From assembly GCF_011045215.1 (NCBI RefSeq), contig NZ_CP049201.1: DNA of 64,000 bases; one strand, written 5' to 3'. Of this stretch, positions 21,915-29,457 are shown piece by piece. The first letter of the stretch is position 1. Each line of letters begins with the position of its first letter. The DNA is from Escherichia coli (GTDB lineage: Bacteria > Pseudomonadota > Gammaproteobacteria > Enterobacterales > Enterobacteriaceae). A program made the position numbers and the translations under genes. Under the pieces are notes generated by a model. That model had not been told where the DNA came from. It saw nothing but the letters and a program-made list of their open reading frames with translations, and did no database searches.

Positions 21915-22856
21915 ATGCGCGAAAAGGATTATGTCGTAATTATAGGTTCGGCGAATATTGATGTCGCCGGATATTCACATGAATCATTAAATTATGCGGA
22001 TTCAAATCCAGGTAAAATAAAATTTACGCCTGGTGGAGTAGGGCGAAATATTGCACAAAATCTGGCGTTGCTGGGTAACAAAGCCTGGCTACTGAGCGCA
22101 GTAGGCAGTGATTTTTATGGCCAATCGCTGCTAACGCAAACCAATCAATCTGGCGTTTATGTCGATAAATGCCTGATTATGCCGGGAGAAAATACGTCGA
22201 GCTATTTATCATTACTCGATAATACCGGTGAAATGCTGGTTGCTATAAATGACATGAATATTAGCAACGCTATTACAGCTGAATATCTCGCACAGCACCG
22301 TGAATTTATTCAGAGGGCAAAGGTCATTGTCGCGGACTGTAATATCAGTGAAGAGGCACTGGCATGGATTCTGGATAATGCCGCCAACGTACCCGTATTT
22401 GTCGATCCGGTTTCAGCGTGGAAATGTGTCAAAGTGCGCGACCGTCTAAATCAGATCCACACTCTGAAGCCAAACCGCCTTGAAGCGGAAACCCTGAGTG
22501 GGATAGCGCTGTCAGGGCGTGAAGATGTGGCAAAGGTTGCCGCCTGGTTCCATCAACATGGCCTGAACCGACTGGTATTGAGCATGGGCGGCGACGGCGT
22601 TTATTACAGTGATATCAGCGGTGAAAGTGGTTGGTCTGCGCCGATCAAAACCAATGTTATTAATGTTACCGGAGCGGGCGATGCCATGATGGCGGGACTT
22701 GCTTCGTGTTGGGTAGACGGAATGCCGTTTGCCGAATCTGTTCGTTTCGCACAGGGATGTTCGTCAATGGCGCTCTCCTGTGAATACACCAATAACCCCG
22801 ATTTATCGATTGCCAACGTTATATCGTTAGTGGAGAACGCAGAATGTCTGAATTAA
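21915..22856 (+). CDS. psuK: Pseudouridine kinase PsuK (YeiC), PfkB family
   Basis: 313-aa ORF; PfkB motifs (GGVGRNIAQNLALLG, GAGDAMMAG). Confidence 0.88.
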   Translation: MREKDYVVIIGSANIDVAGYSHESLNYADSNPGKIKFTPGGVGRNIAQNLALLGNKAWLLSAVGSDFYGQSLLTQTNQSGVYVDKCLIMPGENTSSYLSLLDNTGEMLVAINDMNISNAITAEYLAQHREFIQRAKVIVADCNISEEALAWILDNAANVPVFVDPVSAWKCVKVRDRLNQIHTLKPNRLEAETLSGIALSGREDVAKVAAWFHQHGLNRLVLSMGGDGVYYSDISGESGWSAPIKTNVINVTGAGDAMMAGLASCWVDGMPFAESVRFAQGCSSMALSCEYTNNPDLSIANVISLVENAECLN

Positions 22857-23782
22857 AAATTTCCCCTGAATTATTACAAATTTCCCCGGAAGTGCAGGAC
22901 GCTTTAAAAAACAAAAAACCGGTTGTGGCGCTGGAATCGACCATTATTTCTCACGGGATGCCGTTCCCACAAAATGCCCAGACCGCAATTGAAGTTGAAG
23001 AAACTATTCGTAAACAGGGCGCTGTACCTGCCACTATCGCCATTATTGGCGGCGTGATGAAAGTTGGTTTAAGCAAAGAAGAAATTGAATTACTGGGTCG
23101 TGAAGGGCATAACGTGACCAAAGTTAGTCGTCGCGATTTACCTTTTGTTGTTGCCGCCGGAAAAAATGGCGCAACCACTGTGGCTTCAACGATGATTATT
23201 GCGGCGCTTGCCGGAATTAAAGTATTTGCCACCGGGGGAATTGGTGGTGTGCATCGCGGGGCGGAACATACCTTCGATATTTCTGCCGATTTGCAAGAAC
23301 TGGCAAATACTAATGTCACCGTTGTTTGTGCCGGGGCGAAATCTATTCTCGATTTAGGATTAACCACTGAGTATTTAGAAACCTTCGGTGTGCCGTTAAT
23401 TGGCTATCAGACTAAAGCGCTGCCTGCGTTTTTCTGCCGTACCAGCCCGTTTGACGTCAGCATTCGTCTCGACAGCGCCAGTGAAATTGCCCGTGCAATG
23501 GCGGTGAAATGGCAAAGCGGGCTGAACGGTGGCCTCGTGGTAGCGAACCCGATCCCGGAACAGTTTGCGATGCCAGAACACACTATCAATGCGGCGATCG
23601 ATCAGGCGGTAGCTGAAGCTGAAGCGCAGGGTGTTATTGGTAAAGAAAGTACGCCATTCCTGCTGGCGCGCGTTGCTGAACTGACCGGCGGTGACAGCCT
23701 GAAATCCAACATTCAACTGGTGTTCAACAACGCCATTCTGGCGAGTGAAATTGCCAAAGAATACCAGCGTCTCGCGGGTTAA
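22844..23782 (+). CDS. psuG: Pseudouridine-5'-phosphate glycosidase PsuG (YeiN)
   Basis: 312-aa ORF overlapping the psuK 3' end by 13 nt; IndA/PsuG-family sequence. Confidence 0.88.
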   Translation: MSELKISPELLQISPEVQDALKNKKPVVALESTIISHGMPFPQNAQTAIEVEETIRKQGAVPATIAIIGGVMKVGLSKEEIELLGREGHNVTKVSRRDLPFVVAAGKNGATTVASTMIIAALAGIKVFATGGIGGVHRGAEHTFDISADLQELANTNVTVVCAGAKSILDLGLTTEYLETFGVPLIGYQTKALPAFFCRTSPFDVSIRLDSASEIARAMAVKWQSGLNGGLVVANPIPEQFAMPEHTINAAIDQAVAEAEAQGVIGKESTPFLLARVAELTGGDSLKSNIQLVFNNAILASEIAKEYQRLAG

Positions 23783-23875
23783 TTTCTGACGGGCAGAAAG
23801 CCGTCGCCCGTACTCATCAAACATACCAAAACCTGGCGCTGACGCCGGGTTTACTGGCATGAAGGGAAAATCATT

Positions 23876-25126
23876 ATGGACATAATGAGAAGTGTTGTGG
23901 GGATGGTGGTGTTACTGGCAATAGCATTTCTGTTGTCGGTAAATAAAAAGAGCATCAGTTTGCGCACGGTTGGAGCCGCACTGCTGCTGCAAATCGCTAT
24001 TGGTGGCATCATGCTCTATTTTCCGCCGGGAAAATGGGCTGTAGAACAGGCGGCATTAGGCGTTCATAAAGTGATGTCTTACAGTGATGCCGGTAGCGCC
24101 TTCATTTTTGGTTCGCTGGTCGGGCCGAAAATGGATGTCCTCTTTGACGGTGCGGGTTTTATCTTCGCCTTTCGCGTACTCCCGGCGATTATCTTCGCCA
24201 CTGCGCTCATTAGTCTGCTGTACTACATTGGCGTGATGGGGCTGCTGATTCGCATCCTTGGCAGCATTTTCCAGAAAGCCCTCAACATCAGCAAAATCGA
24301 ATCTTTTGTTGCGGTTACCACTATTTTCCTCGGGCAAAATGAGATCCCGGCGATCGTTAAACCGTTTATCGATCGCATGAATCGCAACGAGTTGTTTACC
24401 GCAATTTGTAGCGGGATGGCGTCCATTGCGGGTTCGATGATGATTGGTTATGCCGGAATGGGCGTACCAATTGACTACCTGTTGGCGGCATCGCTGATGG
24501 CGATCCCCGGCGGTATTTTGTTTGCACGTATTCTTAGTCCGGCAACCGAGCCTTCGCAGGTCACATTTGAAAATCTGTCGTTCAGTGAAACGCCGCCAAA
24601 AAGCTTTATCGAAGCGGCGGCGAGCGGTGCGATGACCGGGTTGAAAATCGCCGCCGGTGTGGCGACGGTGGTAATGGCGTTTGTCGCAATTATTGCGCTG
24701 ATTAATGGCATTATCGGCGGAATTGGCGGCTGGTTTGGTTTTACCAATGCTTCTCTGGAAAGTATTTTTGGCTATGTGCTGGCACCGCTGGCGTGGATCA
24801 TGGGTGTGGACTGGAGTGATGCCAACCTTGCGGGTAGCCTGATTGGGCAGAAACTGGCGATTAACGAATTCGTCGCTTACCTGAGTTTCTCCCCATACCT
24901 GCAAACGGGCGGTACGCTGGAAGTGAAAACCATTGCGATTATCTCCTTTGCGCTTTGTGGTTTTGCTAACTTTGGTTCTATCGGTGTTGTCGTTGGGGCA
25001 TTTTCGGCTATTTCGCCAAAACGTGCACCGGAAATCGCTCAGCTTGGTTTACGGGCGCTGGCAGCAGCAACGCTTTCCAACCTGATGAGCGCGACCATTG
25101 CCGGGTTCTTTATTGGTTTAGCTTGA
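23876..25126 (+). CDS. psuT: Nucleoside (pseudouridine) transporter PsuT (YeiM), NupC/CNT family
   Basis: 416-aa polytopic ORF; paralogous to nupX in this window (mostly identical alignment by eye). Confidence 0.88.
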   Translation: MDIMRSVVGMVVLLAIAFLLSVNKKSISLRTVGAALLLQIAIGGIMLYFPPGKWAVEQAALGVHKVMSYSDAGSAFIFGSLVGPKMDVLFDGAGFIFAFRVLPAIIFATALISLLYYIGVMGLLIRILGSIFQKALNISKIESFVAVTTIFLGQNEIPAIVKPFIDRMNRNELFTAICSGMASIAGSMMIGYAGMGVPIDYLLAASLMAIPGGILFARILSPATEPSQVTFENLSFSETPPKSFIEAAASGAMTGLKIAAGVATVVMAFVAIIALINGIIGGIGGWFGFTNASLESIFGYVLAPLAWIMGVDWSDANLAGSLIGQKLAINEFVAYLSFSPYLQTGGTLEVKTIAIISFALCGFANFGSIGVVVGAFSAISPKRAPEIAQLGLRALAAATLSNLMSATIAGFFIGLA

Positions 25127-25193: not shown

Positions 25194-25853
25194 TTACTGC
25201 ATCATCCCGGAGAATTTATTCTCCGGGTCCATCTCCAGCGCCAGCCCTGACAACTGCTTTCTGTTTTTAATTAGATATCCTTTCTTGCTTTTAATTAATA
25301 AACCGTCGTGAATGAATTGCGCAAGAACATATAAAAGATGTCGATAAGAAACGCCTAAATACTCTGCCGCTTGCGTATGCTTTTCGTGATAAAGATCACC
25401 TTCTTGTGAGAGTAATATAAATGCTGCCAGGCGATTCACTAACGGAAATGATTGATTCTGAGTTAAAGAAACAATATTACGATAATTTTTATGACTTAAG
25501 GTGACGCAAAGTTTTCGTAAAAATAGGGTATCGTTTAATAACAGCGGACGGTAATGTTTCATAGGGAGCGCAAGGCACCAACACTCTTCAATCGCCTGTA
25601 CTGCACGTGGTTCATGGTCTTTATCGATTAACTCAATCTCGCCAATAAAACAGGGGGCGGCAAAGAAATCGATCAGCGACACGCGACCATTAGCTAGCGT
25701 GGCGTAAAGCCTGGCGCGGCCTCGCGTCAGGTAAAACAGCCAGGACGGCTGTTGCCCTTCCTGCACAATGTAGTCACGCGCTAAAAAATGAAACAGCCGC
25801 GTATCGGCTGAAACATCCGTTAAAAAGCAATCCTTAAACGCGGATTCACTCAT
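25194..25853 (-). CDS. yeiL: Crp/Fnr-family transcriptional regulator YeiL
   Basis: ORF 25194..25892; start at the internal ATG ([11 protein letters not shown]...), giving 219 aa; cNMP-binding-like N-terminus and C-terminal HTH. Confidence 0.85.
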
Positions 25854-26021
25854 CAATTGCAGCTTAAGATCATTATTGTGGATTTCTTTCACGATGTTTA
25901 TCCGCTATGAGATTTCTCATATTTAGCATACGTACGCTGTTGTTAAGATTCAATCATCGGCCCGGTCGAATTTTCTTTGCTGTAGAAAAAATAACGCAAC
26001 TGGAAACAGAGGAAATAAACA

Positions 26022-26963
26022 ATGGAAAAGAGAAAAATTATTCTGGATTGTGATCCGGGTCATGATGATGCTATTGCAATGATGATGGCAGCGAAACATC
26101 CGGCAATAGATTTATTAGGCATCACTATTGTAGCGGGTAATCAGACGCTTGATAAAACATTAATTAATGGCCTGAATGTTTGCCAGAAACTGGAGATTAA
26201 TGTTCCGGTTTATGCGGGGATGCCGCAGCCCATTATGCGTCAACAAATCGTTGCCGATAATATTCACGGTGAAACCGGACTGGATGGCCCGGTATTCGAG
26301 CCGCTGACCCGCCAGGCAGAAAGCACTCATGCGGTGAAATACATCATTGATACCCTGATGGCAAGCGATGGCGATATCACTCTGGTGCCGGTTGGTCCGC
26401 TTTCAAATATCGCGGTGGCAATGCGTATGCAACCCGCGATCCTGCCCAAAATCCGTGAAATTGTGCTAATGGGCGGCGCTTACGGTACAGGCAACTTCAC
26501 GCCATCTGCCGAGTTCAACATCTTTGCTGACCCGGAAGCCGCACGCGTGGTGTTCACCTCTGGCGTTCCATTAGTGATGATGGGCCTCGATCTTACCAAC
26601 CAGACCGTTTGCACCCCGGACGTAATTGCTCGGATGGAAAGGGCAGGCGGCCCTGCCGGAGAGCTGTTCAGCGACATCATGAACTTCACTCTCAAAACGC
26701 AGTTCGAAAACTACGGCCTGGCTGGCGGCCCGGTGCACGACGCCACCTGCATCGGTTATCTGATTAACCCTGATGGCATTAAAACCCAGGAGATGTACGT
26801 CGAAGTGGACGTCAACAGTGGCCCTTGTTATGGGCGTACCGTCTGCGACGAGCTGGGCGTTCTTGGCAAGCCCGCTAATACCAAAGTCGGCATCACTATT
26901 GATACCGACTGGTTCTGGGGCTTAGTCGAAGAGTGCGTGCGCGGCTACATCAAAACCCATTAA
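26022..26963 (+). CDS. rihB: Pyrimidine-specific ribonucleoside hydrolase RihB (YeiK)
   Basis: 313-aa ORF with the inosine-uridine nucleoside hydrolase signature DCDPGHDDA near the N-terminus. Confidence 0.92.
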
Positions 26964-27062
26964 GTGTTGATAACAAGCCGGGCCGGTATCGCAAGATGCA
27001 GGCCTGGCTATTTCTGATGGGCAGAAAGCCGTCGCCCAATATGACATGAAGAGATAATCACT

Positions 27063-28313
27063 ATGGATGTCATGAGAAGTGTTCTGGGAATGGTGGTATT
27101 GCTGACGATTGCGTTTTTACTGTCAGTAAACAAGAAGAAGATCAGCCTGCGTACCGTTGGCGCGGCGTTAGTGTTACAGGTCGTGATTGGCGGCATTATG
27201 CTTTGGTTACCGCCAGGGCGTTGGGTCGCTGAAAAAGTCGCTTTTGGCGTGCATAAAGTGATGGCGTACAGCGACGCGGGTAGCGCATTTATCTTCGGTT
27301 CTCTGGTCGGACCGAAAATGGACACCTTATTTGATGGCGCAGGATTTATCTTTGGTTTCAGAGTATTACCGGCAATTATCTTCGTCACCGCGCTGGTGAG
27401 TATTCTCTATTACATCGGTGTGATGGGGATCTTAATTCGCATTCTCGGCGGTATCTTCCAGAAAGCATTAAATATCAGCAAGATCGAGTCATTCGTCGCG
27501 GTCACTACCATTTTCCTCGGGCAAAACGAAATTCCGGCAATCGTCAAACCCTTTATCGATCGGCTGAATCGCAATGAATTATTTACAGCGATTTGTAGTG
27601 GCATGGCCTCAATTGCCGGTTCGACAATGATTGGTTACGCCGCACTGGGCGTACCTGTGGAATATTTGCTGGCGGCATCGTTAATGGCGATCCCAGGCGG
27701 GATCTTGTTTGCCCGCCTGTTAAGCCCGGCTACGGAATCTTCGCAGGTTTCTTTTAATAACCTCTCTTTCACCGAAACACCGCCAAAAAGCATTATTGAA
27801 GCCGCCGCGACAGGGGCAATGACCGGGCTGAAAATCGCTGCGGGTGTGGCAACAGTGGTGATGGCATTTGTTGCCATCATTGCGTTAATTAACGGTATTA
27901 TCGGCGGCGTTGGCGGCTGGTTTGGTTTTGAACATGCCTCGCTGGAGTCCATTTTAGGTTATCTGCTGGCCCCACTGGCGTGGGTAATGGGTGTTGACTG
28001 GACTGATGCGAATCTTGCCGGGAGTTTGATTGGACAGAAACTGGCAATAAATGAATTTGTCGCTTATCTCAATTTCTCACCCTATCTGCAAACGGCTGGC
28101 ACTCTGGATGCTAAAACCGTGGCGATTATTTCCTTCGCGTTGTGCGGTTTCGCTAACTTTGGTTCTATCGGGGTGGTGGTGGGGGCGTTTTCTGCGGTTG
28201 CGCCACACCGTGCGCCGGAAATCGCCCAGCTTGGTTTACGCGCGCTGGCGGCGGCGACACTTTCTAACCTGATGAGTGCCACCATTGCCGGGTTCTTTAT
28301 TGGTTTAGCGTAG
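27063..28313 (+). CDS. nupX: Nucleoside transporter NupX (YeiJ), NupC/CNT family
   Basis: 416-aa ORF, collinear paralogue of psuT (MDVMRSVLGMVVLL... versus MDIMRSVVGMVVLL...). Confidence 0.88.
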   Translation: MDVMRSVLGMVVLLTIAFLLSVNKKKISLRTVGAALVLQVVIGGIMLWLPPGRWVAEKVAFGVHKVMAYSDAGSAFIFGSLVGPKMDTLFDGAGFIFGFRVLPAIIFVTALVSILYYIGVMGILIRILGGIFQKALNISKIESFVAVTTIFLGQNEIPAIVKPFIDRLNRNELFTAICSGMASIAGSTMIGYAALGVPVEYLLAASLMAIPGGILFARLLSPATESSQVSFNNLSFTETPPKSIIEAAATGAMTGLKIAAGVATVVMAFVAIIALINGIIGGVGGWFGFEHASLESILGYLLAPLAWVMGVDWTDANLAGSLIGQKLAINEFVAYLNFSPYLQTAGTLDAKTVAIISFALCGFANFGSIGVVVGAFSAVAPHRAPEIAQLGLRALAAATLSNLMSATIAGFFIGLA

Positions 28314-28368: not shown

Positions 28369-29457
28369 TTACACCATTGGCACTAATGAAAGCGCGTTAT
28401 CGGCAGACAGGGTAGGGTTGTTTAAGCTGCCGCTGGCGCGTGAAATTGCCGCGCAGGCCATCGCAAAACGGGCGCTGTCACGGAAATTGTTTCCTTCCAG
28501 AAAGCTATATACCAGGCCCGCCATAAAACCATCGTCAGCACCAAAACTGTCTACTGTCGTATGCGCTGGTGCGGTCAGCAAAAATTGTTCTCCATCCTTT
28601 TCGCTGCAATAAACTGACTCATCGGGCAAATAAACAAACAGTTGCTGAACACCTTGCTGATGCAACGCATTCACTGCAGCATTACGGTCAGCATCGCTGG
28701 TGATCGCCTGTCCCCATAAAATTTCCAGCTCCGGTAAAGTGGGTTTCAGGGTGTGAATATGCGCCAGCCAGTGTTTGATTTTGCCCGCTTTGAATTCTGA
28801 AACGGTATCGACAAACACCGGGATCTCACCAGCGAGGGTAAAGACCCATTCCAGCGCCTCGGCTGTCAGGTTGCAATCAGCCAGTACCACGCCCGCATGA
28901 CGAAGTAAATCGCGCGACCCGTTCAATAATTGCGGCGATAACTGTTCCAGCAGATGGGTATCGTTAATCGCCAACACGGTTTCATCGTCTCGATTGGCAA
29001 TTGCCAGATACGTCGATGTGCTTTGGCCATGTAAACGAACGCAGCCGGAGACATTCACGCCGGCGCGGCGCGTTTCTTCCAGGAGCATTTCGCCATAAAA
29101 GTCATCGCCAATCACTGAAAGCAAATGGACGTCACGGCCTAACAGCGCCAGATTGTGGGCGATGTTGCGTCCCACGCCGCCCGCTGAGCAATGAATTGTA
29201 CCGGGATGAGAAGCCGATTGCGGGTAACGGATATCCGCCATCCCGCGAATATCCATATTGATTGTCCCCACCACTACGCAGTATTCCTGCTCGGTGAGAA
29301 TGTAACCTTTGCCTTTAATCCGGCCTTTGCGCATTAAATCCATAATATGCGCCGCAACGCGCGAACGGCTGATTTGCAGCATGTCCGCAATTTCGTTCTG
29401 CTGAATCAGCGGGTTACGCCGTAAAATTGCAAGGATCTCCTTTTCCCGGTTATTCAT
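28369..29457 (-). CDS. yeiI: Putative HTH-fused PfkB-family sugar/nucleoside kinase YeiI
   Basis: 362-aa ORF; N-terminal HTH-like segment (EKEILAILRRNPLIQQNEIADMLQISRSRV), then a PfkB kinase domain sharing the GGVGRNIAHNLALLG motif with PsuK. Confidence 0.85.
   Translation of the reverse strand: MNNREKEILAILRRNPLIQQNEIADMLQISRSRVAAHIMDLMRKGRIKGKGYILTEQEYCVVVGTINMDIRGMADIRYPQSASHPGTIHCSAGGVGRNIAHNLALLGRDVHLLSVIGDDFYGEMLLEETRRAGVNVSGCVRLHGQSTSTYLAIANRDDETVLAINDTHLLEQLSPQLLNGSRDLLRHAGVVLADCNLTAEALEWVFTLAGEIPVFVDTVSEFKAGKIKHWLAHIHTLKPTLPELEILWGQAITSDADRNAAVNALHQQGVQQLFVYLPDESVYCSEKDGEQFLLTAPAHTTVDSFGADDGFMAGLVYSFLEGNNFRDSARFAMACAAISRASGSLNNPTLSADNALSLVPMV

Follow-up and report, generated by a model that had tools for sequence, protein, structure and literature searches.

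The leaders of two paralogous transporter genes of Escherichia coli, psuT and nupX, carry a 27-nt motif that differs between them by a single base, which raises the question of what this motif is and whether it has been kept for a function. Both copies are situated in the window (the whole 64-kb stretch of DNA that was analysed), a segment of the E. coli chromosome with the order psuK-psuG-psuT / yeiL / rihB-nupX, in which open reading frames were named through the RefSeq annotation of an identical region. These are psuK (21915-22856), psuG (22844-23782), psuT (23876-25126), yeiL (25194-25892, minus strand; a CRP/FNR-type regulator gene), rihB (26022-26963, with its stop codon at 26961-26963) and nupX (27063-28313, with its ATG at 27063); a gene nearby, yeiI, codes for an HTH-plus-kinase protein. 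In the literature searched, PsuT features solely as the presumed transporter of pseudouridine, and NupX as one that carries uridine and cytidine weakly.

The shared 27-mer and its paralogous background

An earlier note on this DNA had drawn attention to the motif TTTCTGATGGGCAGAAAGCCGTCGCCC upstream of nupX. This sequence was found as a single exact occurrence, located at 27011-27037 (+) and thus one base to the right of the position that had been given for it (27010-27036). As claimed, it lies in the rihB-nupX junction and begins 47 nt past the rihB stop codon, while the distance between the end of the motif and the nupX ATG, reported as 27 bp, is 25 nt. Its designation as the second copy of a psuT/nupX leader motif was borne out: the psuT copy, at 23783-23809, directly abuts the psuG stop codon, shows one C/T difference and is the sole other match to the 27-mer with up to three mismatches in the window, while no match was obtained in 100 dinucleotide shuffles and chance alone predicts none. 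Homology between the two leaders extends from the motif as far as the start codon, and their alignment is colinear, with the motif shared, 41 extra nt in psuT, and the ribosome-binding region and start codon again shared. The proposed boundaries of the motif required revision, as its 5' part, TTTCTG (27011-27016, +), is an unconserved flank, different in every other genus, outside the conserved element, which is a 23-nt stem-loop (27017-27039; here termed P1) that ends 2 nt beyond the previously claimed end.

To interpret the likeness of the two copies, it has to be set against that of the genes which they precede. The PsuT and NupX proteins are 88% identical and their coding DNA 78%, with an identity at third codon positions of only 51%, from which it follows that the duplication is old. 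Among 27-nt windows of the aligned coding sequences, 8 of 1225 reach 26/27 matches, and at a probability of 0.51 per site at least 26 matches out of 27 would arise with a probability of approximately 3e-7. The likeness of the two 27-mers therefore exceeds the paralogue background. Nevertheless, the 26/27 identity overstates constraint at neutral positions, since the two E. coli copies are also alike at the four loop positions that evolve neutrally, as well as in the equally neutral TTTCTG flank. Additionally, the loop of E. coli nupX is psuT-like, while other nupX orthologues have AGTnAGCGGTC. This pattern suggests that Escherichia either underwent a short gene conversion or has an additional, lineage-specific pairing between TTTCTG and CAGAAA, and recent homogenisation may account for part of the close match between the two E. 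coli copies. Among the collected homologous loci, the 27-mer was not found outside Escherichia at up to six mismatches; a diverged version was recognised by eye in all of those non-Escherichia relatives.

Conservation, covariation and distribution of the P1 stem-loop

In the nupX leader, P1 (27017-27039, +) consists of a 5' arm ATGGGC (27017-27022), a loop AGAAAGCCGTC (27023-27033) and a 3' arm GCCCAA (27034-27039). Its outermost pair is an A·A mismatch, leaving five stem pairs in addition to a G27024-C27033 pair inside the loop; the hairpin is part of the centroid fold of the rihB-nupX intergenic region and is matched by the P1 covariance model at 38.1 bits (E=7e-7). The paralogous copy in the psuT leader (23789-23811, +) reads ACGGGC-AGAAAGCCGTC-GCCCGT, begins 6 nt past the psuG stop codon and is matched at 41.7 bits (E=8e-8); its C-G pair corresponds to T-A in complete nupX copies. 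The GC-rich stem comprises 6 bp, the loop is always 11 nt in length, and folding energies range from -7 to -13 kcal/mol.

Leaders for comparison were obtained from several sources. A protein-guided scan with one genome per species gave, among the matches listed, Leclercia, three Citrobacter species, E. albertii and Superficieibacter, while look-ups of identical proteins contributed Buttiauxella, Klebsiella michiganensis, Kluyvera, Enterobacter hormaechei, K. spallanzanii, Entomohabitans and others. Furthermore, metagenomes were scanned with a pattern covering the 26 nt at the start of the coding sequence, so that leaders were not selected on the leader itself, and this yielded 145 transporter starts. 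Together, the metagenomes and genome loci provided 74 distinct psuT/nupX leaders, of which 72, from at least eight enterobacterial genera and from metagenomes, carry the 6-11-6 hairpin; each of the 24 genome-derived leaders contains exactly one. No insertion or deletion was observed inside P1, while the rest of the leader is full of them.

Per-position identity was calculated across 37 lineages separated by more than 6% in their coding sequences, with third codon positions (identity 0.48) serving as the neutral yardstick. The four inner stem pairs display identities of 0.95-1.0, and loop positions 1, 2, 6, 7, 9, 10 and 11 reach 0.80, 0.89, 0.89, 0.80, 0.95, 1.00 and 0.75, respectively. Loop positions 3, 4, 5 and 8 are neutral (0.38-0.57). 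The 12-nt 5' flank that includes TTTCTG ranges from 0.28 to 0.58 (mean 0.41), with TTTCTG itself at 0.30-0.51, like neutral sites, and the 3' flank averages approximately 0.41; taken together, both flanks and the four variable loop positions fall within the neutral range of 0.26-0.62. On the basis of these identities, the conserved unit is defined as NYRGGC-AGnnnGCnGUC-GCCYRN. Exceptions are represented by the Enterobacter nupX copies, which possess a very different loop (GAYCCCGGGTT), and by one lineage (L145/L191) in which the stem is remodelled.

The stem is further supported by covariation. In an ungapped set of 33 distinct sequences, standard pairs occupy 93.5% of helix cells, compared with 33-53% when the 3' partner is slid by one to three columns, and double changes are seen at four pairs, three in the stem (AU/GC/GU, CG/UA/UG and GC/AU) and a seventh pair in the loop (GC/AU). 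None of 500 column shuffles matched the observed pairing or covariation score; these controls ignore phylogeny, and the sample is drawn from one bacterial family. The compensatory states recur across genera and in both paralogues, a 20-sequence set gives the same covariation picture, and RNAalifold, run unguided, arrives at the same six pairs. E. coli strains vary in the psuT 5' arm (AC, GC or GT) while the 3' GT is constant, and all variants pair, by Watson-Crick or wobble pairing. As judged from these comparisons of leaders, P1 is maintained by selection in both the psuT and the nupX leaders across the Enterobacteriaceae, and was duplicated, at a time now remote, along with the transporter gene and its leader.

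These observations bear on the possibility that P1 has no present function, the likeness of the E. coli copies being due to common descent and to recent gene conversion, as the tandem paralogues are only 3.2 kb from each other. Such a view draws on the agreement of the E. coli copies at the four neutral loop positions and in TTTCTG, on the psuT-like loop of nupX, and on the state of the nupX copy in E. coli, some strains of which carry stem mismatches (AGGGGC/GCCCAA), while nupX is truncated in at least one strain. It is, however, very improbable and already contradicted for the element as a whole: gene conversion cannot account for a hairpin that at least eight genera have kept in both leaders, and synonymous sites are saturated while compensatory changes and a position-specific pattern of conserved and neutral loop bases are found. 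In view of the stem mismatches and the truncation in such strains, the nupX copy may be becoming less constrained. In the window, its terminal pair is an A·A mismatch and its leader is shortened, and selection may act less strongly on this copy than on that of psuT.

The pairing states also indicate the molecule on which selection acts. With the terminal pair excluded, G·U occupies eight cells and A·C none; read on the opposite strand, every G·U would become a mismatched A·C, which places the constraint on the sense strand of the genes. In addition, arm changes are mirrored within a single genome, as seen in E. coli (ACGGGC/GCCCGT and ATGGGC/GCCCAT) and in E. hormaechei (ACGGGC/GCCCGT and ACAGGC/GCCTGT). 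Because of this asymmetry and of the mirrored arms, which a single DNA-binding protein would not favour, P1 was treated as an RNA stem-loop, and the comparisons as a whole identify it as a sense-strand RNA hairpin tied to the transporter cistron. The alternative of a DNA operator, GGGC-N11-GCCC, at which YeiL or the HTH-containing YeiI would control an internal promoter, is suggested by the arms, which form a perfect DNA inverted repeat in many copies, and by the proximity of yeiL and yeiI. It is nonetheless highly unlikely, as the G·T over A·C asymmetry is meaningless for double-stranded DNA and one protein would have to read both of the mirrored arm versions in the same genome. Moreover, no sigma-70-like promoter is predicted near either P1 copy on the + strand, and in the fetched neighbourhoods P1 is kept without yeiL in K. 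michiganensis and without yeiI in Buttiauxella and K. spallanzanii.

Within the approximately 1.3 Mb searched, most of which comes from this gene neighbourhood, the distribution of P1 is narrow. In 610 kb of sequence, including approximately 70 NupC-family loci from Vibrio, Pasteurellaceae, Burkholderia, Halomonas and others, the covariance model matches only psuT/nupX leaders, with just the two copies in the window, and in metagenomic contigs (716 kb) all matches with E <=1.5e-3 are positioned just upstream of a transporter start. P1 is absent from the distant NupC homologues of those taxa (about 50% identity) and from the leader of a 72%-identical Klebsiella sp. transporter. E. coli genomes contain a median of two copies and a maximum of three. 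The gene upstream is psuG in 96 cases and rihB in 60, so that in all 156 cases P1 lies between co-directional enzyme and transporter genes, which, together with its covarying stem, corresponds to the anatomy of an intercistronic hairpin. From this distribution, P1 is a two-copy enzyme-to-transporter junction element of the Enterobacteriaceae; a dispersed repeat (REP/BIME, ERIC or Box C) was rejected, given its two places per genome and matches only upstream of psuT/nupX.

Leader context and candidate identities

P1 is one part of a longer leader, which in its fuller form, taken to be ancestral, has the order P1, a G-poor linker with a block AUCAnnnAUACC, a second hairpin (P2) and the ribosome-binding region. 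In the psuT leader of the window, P2 (23829-23852, +; AAACCTGGCG-CTGA-CGCCGGGTTT) is terminator-like but followed by only three U residues; it falls within the 41-nt stretch specific to psuT and is not present in the window's nupX leader. Across leaders, P2 takes the form AAACCYGGC-loop-GCCGGGUUU followed by three to four U, with folding energies of -11 to -17 kcal/mol, and in the consensus fold of 12 P2-bearing leaders its 3' arm GCCGGGTTT is invariant. P2 is present in all psuT leaders and in that of K. spallanzanii nupX and was lost by most nupX leaders, that of E. coli being without the linker too while retaining P1. As nupX leaders lacking both P2 and the linker keep P1, P1 must be able to work without them.

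On its upstream side, P1 starts 6-10 nt after the psuG stop codon in psuT leaders. In the window's nupX leader, a further hairpin (26976-27009, +; AGCCGGGCC...GGCCTGGCT, with the inner part GUAUC-GCAA-GAUGC) is located between the rihB stop codon and P1; its arms vary among E. coli strains with complementarity kept, and other genera have unrelated hairpins or none at this place, so it is probably a species-specific rihB 3' hairpin outside the shared motif. Downstream, the nupX ribosome-binding region and start codon span 27049-27065 (+), with AAGAGA at 27049-27054 and the start codon at 27063-27065; the ribosome-binding region lies at least 9 nt downstream of P1 and is not occluded. Between P1 and the start codon there are 23 to 66 nt, depending on the leader, and in no case does P1 reach into the ribosome-binding site, for which reason a simple translational-operator model is not implied by the anatomy. 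Pairing between the flank of P1 and the Shine-Dalgarno sequence is striking in a few species, such as in E. coli nupX (UAUUUCU/AGAGAUA) and in K. spallanzanii.

A series of known identities was considered for P1. A search of Rfam 15 gave no match over either copy, the best being isrJ at 23779-23853 with 20.1 bits against a gathering threshold of 37 (E=4.3), and nothing in Rfam matched in the leaders of four other genera. An intrinsic terminator is rejected, as the loop is 11 nt and is followed by AATATGAC (nupX) or ACTCATCA (psuT) rather than by a U-rich tract, and a terminator scan of both strands called none at P1 or P2. In E. coli K-12, the psuT and nupX copies of P1 occupy 2257400-2257422 and 2254169-2254191, respectively, on the minus strand. 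The published Term-seq tables searched contain no RNA 3' end at K-12 positions 2254146-2254244 or 2257336-2257428, a result of little weight, as the operons were probably silent in the laboratory media used. Pairing of P1 flanks around the Shine-Dalgarno region, evaluated in 49 leaders, amounted to -6.3 kcal/mol when matched, compared with -6.0 mismatched, -6.2 shuffled and -5.9 for upstream windows, and attenuator pairing between the P1 3' arm and the P2 5' arm reached -8.7 against -9.2 kcal/mol for shuffled sequences (36 leaders); both were dismissed. A classical attenuator of the trp/pyrBI/pyrE type is likewise rejected on the additional ground that most nupX leaders have no P2.

Other readings of the motif itself were also discarded. 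A TTTCTG-N5-CAGAAA hairpin or operator is broken in E. albertii (TTTCCG) and in E. coli VTB96937v (TTTATG...CAGAGA), and the TTTCTG/CAGAAA inverted repeat is absent outside Escherichia and Citrobacter, with the flank being neutral. An alternative register, GACGG...CCGTC, requires GCCGTC, while most genera have GCGGTC. A leader peptide from the ATG in the nupX 5' arm (ATGGGC) does not apply to the psuT copies, which have ACG, GTG or GCG at this place, and its frame, as read by eye, meets different stops or enters the gene depending on the species. A hammerhead is hinted at by CUGAUG...GAAA...GUC in the nupX copy; no helix II is found between CUGAUG and GAAA, and CUGA is unconserved outside Escherichia. 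None of the boxB, SECIS, K-turn and GNRA readings fits the P1 loop. GcvB pairing to the C/A-rich linker was no better than shuffled in a weak test, and complementary partners of the P1 core elsewhere in the window occurred at chance level.

A signal acting on transcription elongation, i.e. a hairpin-stabilised pause or an ops-like element modulating read-through into the transporter gene, deserves separate consideration. The ops element of RfaH is recognised on the non-template strand and has the 12-nt consensus GGCGGTAGnnTG, which the loop and 3' arm of P1, GCGGT(C/A)GCCCG, resemble, one metagenomic copy reading AGCGGTAGCCCG; loop G6 and the Y-G at the base of the stem also fit the weak pause consensus G(-10)...Y(-1)G(+1), and psuT P1 is located upstream of a terminator-like hairpin. 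On the other hand, the E. coli copies, AGCCGTCGCCCG or AGCCGTCGCCCA, depart from ops at four of the ten specified positions and the commonest form in other genera, AGCGGTCGCCCG, at three, which led to the rejection of an ops element as such. The pause consensus, in turn, carries little information, psuT and nupX are not known to be RfaH targets, and the covariation describes a 23-nt RNA stem that is too long for a non-template-strand DNA hairpin in the transcription bubble. An elongation signal is thus to be considered a distant prospect.

A riboswitch, by which pseudouridine, uridine or a related metabolite would control the transporter through a very small RNA, is prompted by the gene context, P1 being exclusive to nucleoside-transporter genes of nucleoside catabolic operons (PMC11241209). 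Its conserved unpaired nucleotides are held in a fixed geometry, and leaders of the psuT type provide the conserved linker block and the terminator-like P2 downstream. Against this, the conserved unit is just 23 nt, and an expression platform is not apparent, with no conserved alternative pairing to the ribosome-binding site or to P2 beyond the controls described above. A loop-linker pseudoknot (GGU/ACC or CCGU/ACGG) was inspected in the aligned leaders and is inconsistent between species, P1 persists in leaders devoid of a candidate expression platform, and there is no Rfam family match. A riboswitch of this kind is accordingly rated as quite improbable, and it is placed together with the DNA-operator and elongation-signal readings among the less likely ones.

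A candidate regulatory hairpin in relation to known systems

The reading that we tentatively favour, at somewhat short of an even chance, is that P1 is a sequence-specifically recognised cis-acting RNA hairpin which tunes transporter expression within the operon. P1 occupies the untranslated stretch that separates psuG or rihB from the NupC-family transporter gene psuT or nupX on the same mRNA, where it would be recognised by a trans-acting factor, for instance an RNA-binding protein or a ribonuclease. Through this factor, the translation or stability of the transporter segment of the polycistronic mRNA would be adjusted separately from that of the enzyme cistrons before it, with P1 acting alone, i.e. 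without the linker or the second hairpin. Recognition by such a factor appears most likely because the length and sequence of the loop are constrained, and not the stem alone; the genes of the cluster encode no recognisable RNA-binding protein. The suggestion of the earlier note that the motif could couple or uncouple the expression of hydrolase and transporter is compatible with the position of P1 in the junction and with its proposed role as a recognised hairpin, although the analyses revealed neither a transcript end or processing site nor an alternative pairing.

A serious rival, albeit unlikely in our estimation, is that P1 functions passively and has no specific partner, either blocking 3'-to-5' exonucleases after cleavage in the A/C-rich linker and so stabilising the message of the upstream enzyme, or simply keeping GC-rich leader sequence from interfering with the ribosome-binding site. 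This would agree with its consistently intercistronic position, shortly after the psuG stop codon in psuT leaders, and with a stable, GC-rich stem, after which come a single-stranded linker poor in G and another hairpin, a layout resembling that of the classical differential-decay junctions malE-malF and papB-papA. Stability, however, does not call for an invariant 11-nt loop with seven conserved bases; large loops weaken hairpins, so that shorter loops or indels would be expected, and none occurs in 72 leaders. Furthermore, rihB-nupX junctions already possess a separate species-specific hairpin after rihB.

Whether recognised or passive, P1 is, from its comparative record, an undescribed and narrowly distributed cis-acting RNA hairpin, and no description of the P1 leader was found in the literature on psuT, nupX, rihB, yeiL and yeiI. 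The regulation of the psu operon (pseudouridine catabolism) and of rihB-nupX is essentially undescribed, and P1, absent from Rfam and retained for as long as the paralogues have existed, would mark a specific post-transcriptional control point. It offers a testable 23-nt handle on the balance between a membrane transporter and cytosolic enzymes, and thereby on the control of modified-nucleoside salvage, which is relevant to the current engineering of E. coli for pseudouridine production. It is improbable that P1 senses nucleosides as a minimal RNA or serves as a hairpin dedicated to the docking of a hitherto undescribed RNA-binding regulator; if so, uptake of pseudouridine and of other pyrimidine nucleosides from RNA turnover would be subject to control at the RNA level, and a new class of riboswitch or ribonucleoprotein switch, among the smallest known, would be added in the best-studied bacterium. 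As P1 is small and confined to one family, it is of modest general importance, which would change with the discovery of a ligand or of a new RNA-binding regulator.

Among described RNA elements, the preQ1-I, guanidine-II (mini-ykkC) and HMP-PP (thiS) RNAs resemble P1 in being hairpin-sized, with invariant unpaired bases, and in their position upstream of a transporter gene. They differ from P1 in that, for the latter, neither a conserved pseudoknot tail nor a second hairpin with which to interact nor an overlapping terminator was found, and it is not in Rfam. The rph-pyrE attenuator, which operates by UTP-sensitive coupling of transcription and translation, belongs to a pyrimidine-related operon, as do the two P1 copies, and its hairpin is positioned a few nt past the upstream stop codon, comparable to the 6-10 nt between psuG and P1, with psuT leaders also bearing a terminator-like hairpin downstream. 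Unlike rph-pyrE, P1 has no U-tract, P2 is followed by only three to four U and no antiterminator pairing is conserved; moreover, a ribosome stopping at the end of rihB cannot reach P1, which lies 47 nt past the rihB stop codon in the window, the separation of rihB and nupX exceeding 130 nt in three genomes.

The malE-malF REP element and the papB-papA and Rhodobacter puf hairpins are, like P1, stable GC-rich junction hairpins after an upstream stop codon, and the cistrons that flank these junctions need different expression levels. Such elements lack a conserved loop, while that of P1 is conserved and fixed at 11 nt, and REPs are dispersed in hundreds of copies, compared with two copies of P1 per genome. 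The boxB of lambda N, the RAT of BglG/SacY, the PyrR-binding loop and the MS2 operator were also compared, and the P1 loop consensus, AGnnnGCnGUC, matches none of them; RAT and PyrR sites additionally overlap a terminator, which P1 does not, and its pairing with P2 is unsupported. In common with these recognised hairpins, however, P1 combines a short covarying stem with several fixed loop bases and constitutes a self-contained module in an mRNA leader upstream of the regulated cistron.

Conservation of the psuT and nupX initiation regions

The first approximately 30 nt of psuT (23876-23905) and of nupX (27063-27092) were compared among the genome-derived loci; the metagenome loci were left out of this comparison because a pattern from this stretch had been used to select them. 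In both genes synonymous sites are conserved as well, with ATGAGAAGT recurring at the 5' coding ends, and the arginine codon in this region is always the rare AGA. Additionally, codon 4 of both genes is a second in-frame ATG. These features suggest either that the initiation region is constrained at the RNA level or that translation truly starts at another codon.

Variation of P1 and of the nupX leader

In P1, the conserved stem-loop of the psuT (23789-23811) and nupX (27017-27039) leaders, the variant loop AGAGAGCCGTC and the loop of the window are about equally frequent (22 versus 19 transporter starts) in a small, non-random sample. In E. coli VTB96937v (L002, 4612-4729), only 66 nt of nupX are left, carrying the annotation of an incomplete hypothetical protein, and the P1 element upstream of this remnant is retained with two substitutions. 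The distance from P1 to the nupX start is 12 nt shorter in the window (27040-27062) than in E. coli SCPM-O-B-8794 (L004, 2466-2500), and K-12 carries the same short form as the window, thus indicating a leader-length polymorphism within E. coli. The AACGnnnTCAGAC block, located 3' of P1 in the nupX leaders of other genera, is missing from that of the window. Directly after rihB, a hairpin (26976-27009) with the inner stem and tetraloop GUAUC-GCAA-GAUGC has outer arms that vary between E. coli strains with complementarity kept; in other genera this position is occupied by unrelated hairpins or by none.

P1 is altered further in other lineages. Approximately 90 nt 5' of psuT in L145 and L191, two metagenome contigs of one divergent lineage, the GGGC/GCCC stem has been lost, and an 11-nt stretch matching the loop consensus, AGCATGCTGTC, persists inside a different small hairpin (GTCAGC-ATGCT-GTCGAC). 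On the Enterobacter-type contigs L087 and L091, the nupX P1 loop is self-complementary and very different (GATCCCGGGTT or GACCCCGGGTT), and the psuT P1 retains the usual loop. The gene order of these contigs, unlike that of E. coli, is yeiL, rihB-nupX, psuK-psuG-psuT, all in the same direction.

The neighbouring gene yeiI

The product of yeiI (28369-29457 in the window; also found at loci L085, L086, L089, L090 and L092) is a PsuK paralogue that bears an N-terminal HTH domain. In most genera the gene adjoins, in convergent orientation, whichever transporter gene comes last in the cluster, psuT or nupX, and its product could be a regulator or kinase of the psuT and nupX operons.

P2 and the P1-P2 linker of the psuT leader

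P2, the second hairpin of the psuT leader (23829-23852), consists of the arms AAACCTGGCG and CGCCGGGTTT and a CTGA loop, and its 3' arm GCCGGGTTT is invariant among 12 leaders that span several genera. The hairpin, with just 3-4 U after it, lies 23 nt upstream of the psuT ATG and may act to attenuate transcription weakly within the operon or to stabilise the 5' end. P2 is missing from most nupX leaders, where direct repeats of CTGGC apparently mediated its deletion. The P1-P2 linker (23812-23833; ACTCATCAAACATACCAAAACC) contains no G in its 22 nt and is reminiscent of C/A-rich translational enhancers or of sRNA target sites. In a quick test, the duplex of this linker with the R1 region of GcvB was no better than those of shuffled controls.
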